Source of the DNA: Escherichia coli
GTDB taxonomy: Bacteria; Pseudomonadota; Gammaproteobacteria; Enterobacterales; Enterobacteriaceae
Assembly: GCF_003334255.1 (NCBI RefSeq)
Contig: NZ_QOWU01000006.1
Strand: one strand, 5' to 3'
Length of the DNA stretch: 64,000 nt
Part shown: positions 30,483 through 52,181 of the stretch, one piece after another
Layout: every line of letters starts with the position of its first letter
Position numbering within the stretch: the stretch's first letter is position 1
Notes under the pieces: model-generated
Databases searched by the model: none
The model's input: the letters and a program-made list of their open reading frames with translations, nothing else
Told to the model about the DNA's origin: nothing
Translations under genes and position numbers: made by a program

Positions 30483-31198
30483 TAGCTGGGCCTCCGCTCA
30501 AAACGTGTCGCGCGCAGGTCAATGCGTTTGAGAATGTACTGACTGAGCAGGGTGATCACCAGGTAAATCGCCGCCGCCACAATGTACCAGGTAAATGGTT
30601 CCTGGGTACGAGTAGCGATGCTTTTTGTTTGCAGCATTAAATCATTCACACTAATCAAACTGACCAGCGCGGTATCTTTCAGCAGCACCAGCCACTGGTT
30701 ACCGAGGCCAGGCAGCGCATGACGCCACATCTGCGGCATCACCAGACGGAAAAAGATAGCCGATTTCGACAGCCCCAGCGCCTGACCAGACTCCCACTGA
30801 CCCACCGGCACCGCTTTCAACGCGCCCCGAAGCGTTTGCGAGGCATAGGCGGCATACAGCAGTGACAGAGCGATGACACCACAAAGGAACGGGCTAACGT
30901 CGAAGTTCTCAATGTCCATCTGCACTGGGATCTGCACGAACCCAAGATTGATAGTGAAGCCATCCGAAAGCGTCAGCAGCAGCTGCGAGGAGCCAAAATA
31001 GATAAACAGCACCACCAGAATTTCTGGCAGGCCACGCAGAATGGTTACCAGCGCTGAACCTGCCCACGCGACAGGACGCCATTTTGCCGACTCCCATACC
31101 GCAAAGAACATCGCCAGCGCCAGCCCGACAATCAATGCACAAACGGCAAGGCCGACGGTCATCCCGGCGGCGCTTGCTAAAGGAAAAAATTCATTCAT
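30482..31198 (-). CDS. artQ: Arginine ABC transporter permease ArtQ
   Basis: 238 aa ORF. Confidence 0.9.
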
Positions 31199-31204
31199 CA
31201 GGAA

Positions 31205-31936
31205 TTACTTCTGGAACCATTTGTTGTAGATGGTTTCGTAAGTGCCATCTTTCTTCACTTTTTCCAGCGCAGTGTTGAGTTTCTGCTGCAGCTCAGTGTT
31301 GCCCTGACGTACCGCGATGCCGAGGCCAGTGCCGAAGTAATCTTTATCGGTCACTTTGTCGCCCACCGCCGCCAGTTTCGGGTTATCTTTCAGCCACTCA
31401 GTGACCACTGCGGTGTCACCGAAGACGCCGTCGATACGCCCGTTTTGCAGATCCAGTTTTGCGTTCTGGTAGCTGTCATACGGAACGGTAGTGATTTCCG
31501 GGTGCTTATCCATAATGAATTTCTGGTGTGTCGTCCCGTTCTGTACGCCGACTTTTTTGCCTTTCAGCTGATCAACACTGGTGTATTTGCCTTGCTGACC
31601 CACAAACAGGGCAGAGTTGTCATAGTACGGGGTGGTAAACAGCACCTGCTTTTCACGCTCCGGAGTGATATCCATGCCCGCCATCACGGCTTCTACGCGA
31701 CGGAATTTCAGGCTTGGGATCAGGCTGTCAAACGCCTGGTTAGAGAAAGTGCAGGTTGCATCAATCTCTTTACACAGCGCTTGTGCCAGGTCGACGTCAA
31801 AACCAACGATCTGGTTGTTTGCATCAATCGATTCAAACGGAGGATAGGAGGCTTCGGTAGCAAAACGAATGGTTTCGGCAGCTGTGGCGGAAAGACTAAA
31901 ACCTGCAATTAACGCGGCAATCAGAACTTTTTTCAT
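31205..31936 (-). CDS. artI: Arginine-binding periplasmic protein ArtI
   Basis: 243 aa ORF with signal peptide. Confidence 0.9.
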   Translation of the reverse strand: MKKVLIAALIAGFSLSATAAETIRFATEASYPPFESIDANNQIVGFDVDLAQALCKEIDATCTFSNQAFDSLIPSLKFRRVEAVMAGMDITPEREKQVLFTTPYYDNSALFVGQQGKYTSVDQLKGKKVGVQNGTTHQKFIMDKHPEITTVPYDSYQNAKLDLQNGRIDGVFGDTAVVTEWLKDNPKLAAVGDKVTDKDYFGTGLGIAVRQGNTELQQKLNTALEKVKKDGTYETIYNKWFQK

Positions 31937-31953
31937 TGTTGTTATCCCGAATC

Positions 31954-32682
31954 TTAGTGAGAGAGATAGTTTTTAAATGCTTCGGTTTGCGGCTCGGTAA
32001 AGCAGCTCGCGTCGCCTTGTTCTACGATATGACCATTTTCCATATACACCACTCGGCTGGCGGTTTTACGCGCCACTTCAACTTCGTGGGTGACGATCAC
32101 CTGGGTAATATTCGTTTCTGCCAGCTCACGAATGATGCTGACGATTTGTGCCGTAATTTCCGGGTCCAGTGCGGCGGTCGGTTCATCGAACAGCAGTACC
32201 TGCGGTTCCATCATCAACGCACGGGCAATAGCAACACGCTGCTGCTGACCACCAGAAAGATGCAGCGGGTAACGATCGCTATAAGGTTTGAGACGCAGAC
32301 GTTCCAGCAGTTTTTCTGCACGGGCCAGCGCCTGATCTTTACTCAACCCCAGTACACGGCAGGGCGCTTCAATCAGGTTTTGCTGCACGGTCAGATGCGG
32401 CCACAGGTTGTATTGCTGAAACACCATGCCAACGTTACGACGCAAATCGCGAATCGCTTTGTCAGAGGGTGTTTTGGTGAAATCGAAATGGTTGCCTGCA
32501 ATGTTGAGCGTACCGGAGCGCGGCATCTCAAGCAGATTGAGTACACGCAGCAGCGAGCTTTTACCCGCGCCGCTGGGGCCAAGTAACACCAGCGTTTCGC
32601 CCTGTGGGCAATCCAGCGTGATATCGAACAGCGCCTGATGCGCGCCGTAGAAGCAATTAATGCCGTTTAATTGAATACTCAT
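31954..32682 (-). CDS. artP: Arginine ABC transporter ATPase ArtP
   Basis: ORF 31954..32781; ATG at 32682 ([10 protein letters not shown]) gives 242 aa; Walker [10 protein letters not shown], signature LSGGQQQR. Confidence 0.9.
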
Positions 32683-32899
32683 TGACACTCGTATACTGGC
32701 AGTCTGATAGCTATTGAGGTCGAAGATAGTACCTTTGACAGAATAATTATGCAATATTTCTGCTTTAAAAGTTAAAAGCAAAGCGCATTATTCAATAAAC
32801 ATAGCACAAAATAACGGGGGCGGTGGTCGGCGAGCATAAATGTCGGCATTCCTCACGAAATGCCGGACAATTTACGGGGTTTATTGGTTGATCAAGGCG

Positions 32900-33415
32900 T
32901 TAGCGATTCTCGATGGACTGACGGAGCGTACCCGCCGTGGCATGAACGCTACCGCCTAAGTAACGCACATCGTCGATGACCCAACACTGGCCTTCCTGAA
33001 TCATTAACACTTCATCCTGCCAACCCTGGTCACCCTGTTTGAGATCCACGCGCAATGGAATGTTACGGGCATCACGATTAGGGATAGTCGATGCACTGGC
33101 AACGTGGGCGCTATCTGGCAAGGTGGTTCGACTGGAGAATGGATCGTTGGTCAGTAGTTCCCGATGGTTATTATCCTGGGAGGCATCGCTAAGCAGTGTC
33201 GCCAGTTTGTCGCTCAGATAAGGGCGCAAGGCGGTGATGTCGTTGCTGCGGTGCAAAATGCGGTAGTCATAAAATTGCTGGGCCACGTTATCCGGGCCTC
33301 CTTCAACGCAAGGACCACTGCGTGTGCCGTTATCTTTATAAGCTGGAGTGACTGTGGTGCAGGCACTGAGGAGCAGTGCGCAGGGGATAAGCATTGTCAA
33401 TTTGCTGTAGCGCAT
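32900..33415 (-). CDS. ybjP: Lipoprotein YbjP
   Basis: 171 aa ORF, lipobox LLSAC. Confidence 0.85.
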   Translation of the reverse strand: MRYSKLTMLIPCALLLSACTTVTPAYKDNGTRSGPCVEGGPDNVAQQFYDYRILHRSNDITALRPYLSDKLATLLSDASQDNNHRELLTNDPFSSRTTLPDSAHVASASTIPNRDARNIPLRVDLKQGDQGWQDEVLMIQEGQCWVIDDVRYLGGSVHATAGTLRQSIENR

Positions 33416-33540
33416 AATGATTTCCTTATAAGCGATCGCTCTGAAAGCGTTCTACGATAATAATGATATCCTTTCAATAATAGCGTATCAGTCTGATAAT
33501 GCTTTTGAGATCGAAGGCTTAGCAAACAAGGAGATCGATC

Positions 33541-33864
33541 ATGCAATTTTCTACAACCCCAACTCTGGAAGGCCAGACCATCGTTGAATATTGCGGTGTG
33601 GTGACCGGCGAAGCGATTTTAGGTGCCAATATTTTCCGTGATTTCTTTGCCGGTATCCGCGATATCGTTGGCGGACGTTCCGGTGCGTATGAAAAAGAAC
33701 TGCGTAAAGCACGGGAGATCGCCTTTGAGGAATTAGGCTCCCAGGCGCGGGCGCTGGGGGCCGATGCCGTCGTCGGTATTGATATCGACTACGAAACGGT
33801 CGGGCAAAACGGCAGTATGCTGATGGTTAGCGTCAGCGGTACGGCGGTGAAAACGCGTCGATGA
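33541..33864 (+). CDS. ybjQ: YbjQ (UPF0145 family)
   Basis: 107 aa ORF. Confidence 0.85.
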
Positions 33865-34691
33865 GAAGATTCTTCTGGCTGGTCGCTGCCGCTCTGTTAT
33901 TGGCAGGGTGTGCAGGCGAAAAAGGCATTGTCGAGAAAGAGGGATATCAGCTTGATACCCGACGCCAGGCGCAGGCGGCGTATCCGCGCATTAAAGTGCT
34001 GGTGATCCACTACACCGCAGATGATTTTGATAGCTCGCTGGCGACACTGACCGATAAGCAGGTCAGCTCGCATTATCTGGTCCCTGCGGTACCACCGCGA
34101 TACAACGGTAAACCGCGCATCTGGCAACTGGTGCCGGAACAAGAACTGGCCTGGCATGCGGGGATTAGCGCCTGGCGCGGGGCAACGCGCCTTAACGACA
34201 CCTCTATTGGCATTGAGCTGGAAAACCGTGGCTGGCAAAAATCGGCCGGAGTGAAATATTTTGCCCCGTTTGAACCGGCACAGATTCAGGCGCTTATTCC
34301 ACTGGCGAAAGATATTATTGCCCGTTATCACATCAAGCCGGAAAACGTAGTGGCACATGCGGATATCGCACCGCAGCGCAAAGACGATCCGGGGCCATTA
34401 TTTCCCTGGCAGCAACTGGCGCAGCAGGGGATTGGTGCCTGGCCGGATGCGCAGCGGGTTAACTTTTACCTTGCCGGGCGCGCGCCGCACACACCGGTAG
34501 ATACCGCGTCATTGCTGGAGCTTTTGGCGCGCTACGGTTATGACGTTAAACCTGATATGACACCGCGCGAGCAGCGGCGCGTGATTATGGCATTCCAGAT
34601 GCATTTCCGCCCGACGTTATATAACGGCGAAGCGGATGCAGAAACTCAGGCGATTGCCGAAGCATTGCTGGAGAAATACGGGCAGGATTAG
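33861..34691 (+). CDS. amiD: N-acetylmuramoyl-L-alanine amidase AmiD (lipoprotein)
   Basis: 276 aa ORF, lipobox LLAGC; ATGA overlap with ybjQ. Confidence 0.9.
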
Positions 34692-51281: not shown

Positions 51282-51313
51282 GCCTTTAGGATGTACACAA
51301 TGAGACAGAAGAG

Positions 51314-51538
51314 CTATGCGACTGCCGCTTCTACTTCGACGGGCACAATAACACTGGCGTGATTGCCTTTTGGCCCCTGGTGGACATCAAACTGAACGGA
51401 TTGTCCAGCTTTTAGCGTTCTGTAACCATCCATCTGAATGGTGGAATAATGAGCGAAAATATCTTCGCCGCCGCCTTCAGGGCAGATGAAACCAAACCCT
51501 TTGGCATTGTTGAACCACTTAACAGTACCCTTTTCCAT
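51314..51538 (-). CDS. cspD: Cold-shock-domain protein CspD (stationary-phase replication inhibitor)
   Basis: ORF 51314..51568; ATG at 51538 (MEKGTVKWFNNAKGFGFI) gives 74 aa. Confidence 0.9.
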   Translation of the reverse strand: MEKGTVKWFNNAKGFGFICPEGGGEDIFAHYSTIQMDGYRTLKAGQSVQFDVHQGPKGNHASVIVPVEVEAAVA

Positions 51539-51860
51539 GCTTCGACATCCTTCGCAAATCTTATACAAGTAAGATGGAATAAACCGGGGTCAGAGAGGGG
51601 GCTGTTCAAAACCTCGCCAACTCTAGAAATACAATTTAGAGAATTAGGGCGAGCCGTCAAGCATTTGACAGGGGACAAGGGGCAGGTATGAATCAAAAAT
51701 TTGAAGCAGTTAACGCTATTGACAGGAATGTGACAGATGTCGCTGATGCCAACGATAGATGATAGTTATCTATCATGTGGAGTAGATTGGTCAGGCAAAT
51801 AAGCTCTTGTCAGCGGCAGGGCGTTCTGCCGATAACCGTAACCGAAGATGATAACTGACA

Positions 51861-52181
51861 ATGGGTAAAACGAACGACTGGCTGGACTTTGATCAACTGG
51901 CGGAAGAAAAAGTTCGCGACGCGCTAAAACCGCCATCTATGTATAAAGTGATATTAGTCAATGATGATTACACTCCGATGGAGTTTGTTATTGACGTGTT
52001 ACAAAAATTCTTTTCTTATGATGTAGAACGTGCAACGCAATTGATGCTCGCTGTTCACTACCAGGGGAAGGCCATTTGCGGAGTCTTTACCGCCGAGGTT
52101 GCAGAAACCAAAGTGGCGATGGTGAACAAGTACGCGAGGGAGAATGAGCATCCATTGCTGTGTACGCTAGAAAAAGCCTGA
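51861..52181 (+). CDS. clpS: ClpS, N-end rule adaptor for ClpAP
   Basis: 106 aa ORF. Confidence 0.9.

Follow-up and report, generated by a model that had tools for sequence, protein, structure and literature searches.

A perfect palindrome upstream of clpS in Escherichia coli as the apparent attB core of PICI-like islands and part of the clpS-proximal promoter

The intergenic region between cspD and clpS of Escherichia coli carries a perfect palindrome at 51759-51776 that insertion junctions show to be the apparent attB core of a family of approximately 10.5-kb PICI-like islands. The same 18 bp overlap the -35 region and the spacer of the clpS-proximal sigma-70 promoter. The symmetry of the palindrome probably serves the mobile element, and the functions of the host use part of the sequence. 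The stop signal of a small protein, the -35 region of a promoter, probably part of a stress-regulator operator and the integration target of a mobile element all coincide in this 18-bp stretch. All positions refer to the window, that is, the whole stretch of 64,000 nucleotides of E. coli DNA that was analyzed (contig NZ_QOWU01000006.1).

The palindrome and the islands inserted at it

The palindrome, ATGATAGTTATCTATCAT, is composed of two perfect 7-nt arms and a 4-nt loop, ATGATAG-TTAT-CTATCAT. An earlier note on this DNA had described a 7-4-7 palindrome about 85 bp upstream of the clpS start and preceded by a direct GATAG repeat, and this description proved accurate. The palindrome ends 84 nt before the clpS ATG at 51861, and the direct repeat GATAGATGATAG was found just 5' of it at 51754-51765. 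A second perfect dyad that the note did not mention, GATAGAT-N7-ATCTATC, overlaps the palindrome, with arms at 51754-60 and 51768-74. Dinucleotide shuffles were employed to estimate the chance expectation. The 64-kb window contains 84 perfect inverted repeats with 7-nt arms and loops of 0-10 nt, compared with 47.7 +/- 6.7 expected, and 10 perfect 7-4-7 repeats, compared with 4.6 +/- 2.0. When the 322-bp intergenic region was shuffled, the probability of at least one was 0.13 and the probability of at least two was 0.03. Although the palindrome is real, statistics do not set it apart when it is taken by itself, and it is the context that gives it meaning.

A BLAST search of 5,426 complete E. 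coli genomes recovered the intergenic region in one piece in ~5,058 genomes and in two pieces in ~367 (~7%). In the split genomes, the left-hand match extends as far as 51775/6 and the right-hand match begins at 51759, so that exactly the palindrome is shared by the two. Three of the ~367 split genomes, 09-00049, F11 and AH21E028, were inspected in sequence and found to carry inserts of 10,631 bp, 10,831 bp and 10,543 bp, respectively, located between yljB and clpS. Direct repeats of 17-18 bp, equal to the palindrome, flank the island in all three strains. The attR copy is ATGATAGTTATCTATCAT in each of them, and the attL copy is ATGATAGTTATtTATCA in 09-00049 and F11 and ATGATAGTTATtTATCAT in AH21E028. 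Because the direct repeats flanking the islands match the palindrome, the latter (51759-51775/6) can be assigned as the attB core.

The junction is common to all three islands, which have differing packaging modules. In each of them the gene of a 412-aa tyrosine integrase lies 180 bp from attL. The integrase has the Pfam domains Arm-DNA-bind_3 and Phage_integrase, which is the P4-type architecture, and falls into PHROG 1 (integrase); its nearest counterpart among 50,697 deposited phage records shares 46% identity with it. The genes that follow int encode an AlpA-type excisionase/regulator, an Icd-like protein, a P4-family primase, SSB, capsid and small-terminase proteins. No tail or lysis genes were present in the gene content of the three islands. 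Judged by their gene set and size, the inserted islands are classed as Gram-negative PICI-type phage satellites.

The hexamer TGTTCG occurs at positions 22, 32, 95, 105, 10504, 10514 and 10524 of the 10,648-bp island, mostly with a spacing of 10 bp. Of the eight forward copies in the island, these seven are all no more than 145 bp away from an end, and the eighth lies elsewhere. The TGTTCG repeats are candidate arm-type integrase sites, as expected from their placement at the ends. The core can be read as ATGATA / GTTAT(C/T) / TATCAT, which is the crossover layout of a tyrosine recombinase. Position 12 of the core is T in attL and C in attR, a difference suggesting that strand exchange may occur to the left of position 12. 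If the general mechanism of tyrosine recombinases applies, two integrase protomers would bind the inverted arms ATGATA and TATCAT, the strands would be exchanged within the central ~6 bp of the core, and the arm-binding domain of the integrase would grip the TGTTCG repeats at both ends of the island. The earlier note had read the symmetry as the operator of a dimeric regulator. Recognition by paired protein subunits is consistent with the symmetry, but the evidence is strongest for the attB core of a satellite integrase.

The searchable full-text literature, queried with the core sequence and with cspD/clpS together with integrase or PICI terms, returned no description of this att site. PICI catalogues were outside the search, and no claim is made that the site is unreported.

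In strain Z1323HEC0475, the chromosome record NZ_CP148326.1 has a break precisely at the 51758/51759 boundary. Its clpS side adjoins a truncated tail gene of a P2/186-like prophage with a retron Ec67 reverse transcriptase, and the cspD side is the end of a 42-kb record labelled as a plasmid, NZ_CP148327.1. The possibility of a P2-like prophage at the clpS site was set aside in view of the truncated-tail junction and of the missing chromosome segment on the "plasmid" record; the break at the att core is a rearrangement or an assembly artefact. A separate peculiarity was seen in AH21E028, where a type I-F CRISPR array with cas1f/cas3f lies directly downstream of clpA (30585-34117 in the numbering of the AH21E028 locus, not of the window), at the place occupied by serW and infA in K-12.

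yljB and the transcription map of the region

The gene order in this E. coli window is macA-macB, cspD, yljB, clpS, clpA. By annotation, cspD occupies 51314-51538 on the - strand, and the clpS coding sequence, downstream of the palindrome, extends from 51861 to 52181 on the + strand. The small protein yljB (24 aa; 51688-51762, + strand) is present in the RefSeq annotation; it has been validated by western blotting (Weaver et al.) and has a Salmonella homologue. The reading frame places tandem yljB stop codons in the left arm of the palindrome, TGA at 51760-62 and the next in-frame TAG at 51763-65. The relatives were compared by eye. The peptide is kept in Salmonella and terminates at the second stop codon, TAG. 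In Klebsiella and Leclercia, a -1/+1 indel pair scrambles the middle of the peptide, and the ORF still begins at the same ATG; it shares the E. coli stop in Klebsiella and extends to a TGA ~17 nt downstream in Leclercia. The Citrobacter ORF is shortened to 14 codons. Across these relatives, the sequence comparison makes it seem that what is conserved is the DNA rather than the peptide.

The cspD start reported by Kim et al. 2012, 921,899(-) in U00096.2, corresponds to 51624 in the window and agrees with the scanned -35 TTGACG and -10 TAAATT. The offset between U00096.2 and the window was fixed from the cspD, clpS and clpA rows of the same data. Cappable-seq (Ettwiller 2016) places + strand start sites at 51308 (U00096.2 921,583; score 277), antisense to cspD, at 51795 (922,070; score 35.9), proximal to clpS, and at 51956 (922,231; score 40.9), inside clpS and serving clpA. 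The conserved hexamer TAGATT (51783-51788, + strand) lies at -12 to -7 of the start at 51795 and is the -10 of the clpS-proximal promoter. The palindrome therefore spans -36 to -19 and overlaps the -35 region and spacer of this sigma-70 promoter. The -35-like hexamer, deduced from the start and the -10, is ATGATA (51759-51764, + strand), a weak 4/6 match followed by an 18-bp spacer. The sigma-70 scan tool called the cspD promoter alone, the clpS promoter with 8/12 being under the cut-off. In both NC101, which has an empty site, and the island carrier AH21E028, the clpS -10 is TAAATT instead of TAGATT (window 51785) and there is a C-to-T change at the position equivalent to 51750; the palindrome is unaltered in both.

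The start at 51308 is the strongest + strand start of the region, located 553 nt upstream of clpS and just past the macB/cspD terminator, and transcription from it runs antisense across the whole of cspD. It is the sole clpS start given by Kim 2012 (368 reads). This start is likely to be the source of the yljB mRNA, and the transcript may also serve as a long leader of clpS or as an antisense RNA to cspD. A Term-seq 3' end was located at 52158 inside clpS, 54 nt ahead of the clpA ATG. This 3' end, together with the clpA-specific start at 51956 within clpS, indicates that the expression of clpS and clpA can be uncoupled. The 5' UTR of clpS, downstream of the start at 51795, contains an imperfect inverted repeat, GTCAGCGGCAG / CTGCCGATAAC, at 51809-51836. 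The corresponding sequences of relatives differ but stay complementary, for example CGGCCG...GCCGCCGG, which suggests that the repeat may form a conserved leader hairpin.

Other reported or putative protein binding sites lie just upstream of the palindrome. The PhoB ChIP-seq site TGTCACATTCCTGTCAAT, a near-consensus Pho box on the - strand at 51718-51735 (peak 922,786 in v3 coordinates, 51734 in the window), overlaps the CRP-like and OxyR-like elements; its source detected no effect on cspD or clpS expression. The CRP-like site TGTGA-N6-TCGCT (51729-51744), recognized by its sequence and conservation, is centered at -112.5 from the cspD start and overlaps the distal part of the OxyR-type motif described below. 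The AAAATTTGAAGCAGTTAACGCTATTG block at 51696-51720 is almost invariant and is kept in Serratia, Yersinia, Rahnella and Erwinia, and more loosely in Photorhabdus, so that it is conserved far more widely than the remaining intergenic region; it scores 10-14.5 bits with the OxyR matrix. The element at 51729-51744 is a putative CRP site, and 51696-51720 would fit a weak CRP site at -83.5 of cspD, both as reportedly described by Uppal et al. 2014. The block at 51696-51720 is more conserved than a weak CRP site would require.

Conservation, a candidate OxyR operator and alternative readings

Fifteen Enterobacteriaceae were aligned, with the loci obtained by a clpS-based genome scan and by exact-protein look-ups; the latter supplied Salmonella, Klebsiella, Pluralibacter, Cronobacter, Buttiauxella and Cedecea. 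The conserved blocks are TTTGAAGCAGTTAACGCTAT at 51700-19, TGTGA...TCGC at 51729-43, ATAGATG.T.GTTATCT at 51755-71 and GTAGATT at 51782-88, the last of which lies 18 bp after the ATGATA position without exception. TAGATT is invariant or near-invariant at this fixed spacing in 12 of the 15, and ATAG and TTATC are likewise invariant or near-invariant in 12 Enterobacteriaceae. The arms of the 7-4-7 dyad are fully complementary (7/7) in E. coli and E. albertii, and the dyad was also found intact in a B2 strain that is divergent; complementarity is lower in Klebsiella (6/7), Salmonella (5/7), Citrobacter (4/7) and several further genera (1-4/7). Conservation across genera is confined to the left 13-14 bases of the palindrome, and outside Escherichia the right arm is not maintained. 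The second dyad, GATAGAT-N7-ATCTATC (51754..51774), is better kept, with 7/7 in Salmonella and 6/7 in Klebsiella and Citrobacter. The earlier note had held that its operator would be refuted if the palindrome were not conserved in closely related genomes. That Salmonella, Klebsiella, Citrobacter and other genera do not keep the right arm speaks against a host operator on the 7-4-7 dyad.

The OxyR consensus of Toledano et al. 1994 is reportedly ATAGnTnnnAnCTAT-N7-ATAGnTnnnAnCTAT. This consensus was scanned against both strands of the whole window, a total of 127,928 positions. The top match (17/20) is the promoter of grxA, a - strand gene, at 19761-19797; this known target provided an internal positive control. 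The second rank among the 127,928 positions is held by ACAG-N7-TGAT-N7-ATAG-N7-TTAT at 51733-51769, with 15/20, and no other site in the window reaches at least 15/20. The last 11 bases of this motif are the left arm and loop of the palindrome. The best matches in thirteen MG1655 OxyR-target promoters range from 12 to 17 of 20. A matrix was also constructed from 15 of those sites, which excluded clpS and were chosen by consensus match rather than footprints; 51733-69 was again second in the window with 13.9 bits, the leave-one-out scores of the training sites being 1.6-23 bits. An alternative register at 51755-51791, which shares the central ATAG-N7-TTAT, scores 10.6 bits in E. coli, and in Salmonella and Klebsiella the two registers score about equally. 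The OxyR-type motif ranks first or second at the aligned position in most relatives; Cronobacter, Buttiauxella and Cedecea have lost it. When column conservation was correlated with matrix information, register 51733 gave r = 0.33, the second-best value, and register 51718 gave 0.43. A register one helical turn upstream (51722-58), at the standard -73 to -37, was rejected, since it matched 7/20 by hand and was missing from the best scan matches.

The OxyR motif ends at -38 in oxyS and at -37 in ahpC and grxA, compared with -26 in clpS when the start at 51795 is used. Either the geometry of the clpS site is atypical or the H2O2-induced start lies ~11 nt downstream of 51795. Reviews from the Imlay laboratory place clpSA among the OxyR-induced genes, with a 4.1-fold induction, citing Sen et al. 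2020. A PclpS reporter goes up under H2O2, and the Imlay laboratory reports that ClpSA is required so that iron stays available for enzyme repair under H2O2 stress. Accessible OxyR binding datasets do not list the clpS site. The motif matches, their conservation and the place of clpSA in the OxyR regulon make it somewhat probable that OxyR binds an element containing ATAG-N7-TTAT (51755-69), which is a candidate site. The left arm and loop would then constitute a conserved OxyR operator half-site, and H2O2 would induce clpSA through that operator. Some host regulator probably binds this region, with OxyR as the candidate; the OxyR-type motif uses the left arm and loop alone and lies on a different axis. 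An attractive palindrome can mislead about the true binding axis of a host regulator.

Other explanations of the symmetry were considered. It is very unlikely that a host dimeric repressor, Fur or another, uses the 7-4-7 dyad as its operator and silences the clpS-proximal promoter by covering the -35 and spacer. The placement of the dyad at -36 to -19 of a mapped promoter would suit such a repressor, as would its perfection in E. coli and E. albertii and its integrity in the divergent B2 strain; however, the arms decay across genera while the ATAG, TTATC and TAGATT blocks stay fixed, and no such regulator is named in the accessible literature. The likeness to an iron box that had been pointed out did not survive a Fur consensus scan, in which the best match to GATAATGATAATCATTATC around the palindrome was 11/19, a background level attained by 0.5% of the window positions. 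The Fur box was rejected for this reason and because the GATAG units recur every 7 bp, not every 6.

The palindrome could also act as RNA: a hairpin formed by it within the long yljB-encoding leader transcribed from 51308 would hide the stop codons of yljB and influence termination, re-initiation or stability upstream of clpS. The strong + strand start upstream, the translation of yljB and a predicted folding energy of -5.6 kcal/mol (-8.5 for an extended form) agree with this proposal. Nevertheless it is extremely improbable, as the stem is short, A/U-rich and not kept in relatives, and the palindrome is upstream of the proximal clpS start and therefore missing from that mRNA. An intrinsic terminator or attenuator was ruled out: the terminator scan made no call and there is no T-run at the palindrome, and no + strand Term-seq 3' end was found in the intergenic region. 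Rfam gave no match at the palindrome and, elsewhere, just a sub-threshold cspA-thermoregulator match on cspD. The symmetry may instead be unused by the host and a chance by-product of the yljB stops, the OxyR half-site and the -35, the satellite having adopted a conserved target. Perfect 7-nt-arm palindromes are indeed common, cross-genus conservation is limited to the left 13-14 bases, and mobile elements commonly target conserved sequences. This explanation departs from the preferred one on origin only, the present use being identical, but it gives no account of the perfect right-arm complement precisely in the genus of the islands and is considered unlikely. The preferred reading is still that the symmetry serves the satellite and that the host uses part of the sequence.

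Consequences of insertion and comparison with known systems

In this preferred reading, the host uses the left two thirds of the palindrome, which hold the end of yljB, belong to the -35 and spacer of the promoter and probably supply one half of an OxyR site. Integration duplicates the core, and therefore yljB and the promoter from -36 to +1 survive the insertion. On the attL side, yljB remains complete with its two stop codons, and the carriers still have it annotated. The attR side keeps -36 to +1 of the clpS promoter, and everything upstream of -36 becomes island DNA. The insertion replaces three quarters of the OxyR-type motif, and the OxyR matrix score at attR drops from 13.8 to 4.3 bits; the island arm carries a 12-bit AT-rich match to the OxyR matrix 6 bp upstream. 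The prediction is that island carriers keep the core clpS promoter and lose most of the candidate OxyR operator, which would constitute a strain-to-strain difference.

A bolder proposal, which we regard as doubtful, is that one DNA segment serves both as the att core and as the OxyR/-35 control region of clpSA and that the two systems interact through it. If this is true, island insertion would strip clpSA of a peroxide-responsive operator, and the oxidative-stress and iron-pool response would be rewired in ~7% of E. coli strains. Furthermore, OxyR or RNA polymerase bound to attB, attL or attR could gate integration or excision by oxidative stress, and the perfect dyad, found only in Escherichia, could be the footprint of repeated cycles of integration and excision. 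Each component is of a known kind, and the modest interest of the site lies in the coincidence of an att core with a promoter regulated by stress. The annotation gains a precise attB/attP core and arm-type repeats for an E. coli satellite family found in ~7% of complete genomes, and the clpS-proximal promoter is located.

The palindrome can be compared with three known kinds of site. Like Fur boxes, it has AT-rich, GATA-containing repeats, and ClpSA is functionally linked to iron pools. However, the spacing of TGATA...TATCA is N6 at the palindrome, whereas in the Fur 7-1-7 motif it is N5. The candidate OxyR site resembles the operators of oxyS, ahpC, grxA and katG (ATAG-N7-CTAT-N7-ATAG-N7-CTAT) in having four elements at 11-bp spacing with a 15/20 match, in preceding an operon that is induced by H2O2 and belongs to the OxyR regulon, and in the conservation of the central half-site in Enterobacteriaceae. 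It differs in that the clpS motif ends one helical turn nearer to the start (-26 as opposed to -37/-38) and in that its register is ambiguous.

The resemblance to the attB sites of P4-type integrases and PICIs extends over several features. Both ends of the ~10.5-kb island carry a copy of the 17-18 bp identity segment, and the integrase gene next to attL is followed by genes for an AlpA-type regulator, a P4-family primase and capsid/small-terminase proteins. Additionally, the core has inverted arms, short arm-type repeats are present in both attP arms, and the interrupted host features are regenerated on insertion. One difference is that the clpS target is an intergenic promoter/operator region and not a tRNA gene.
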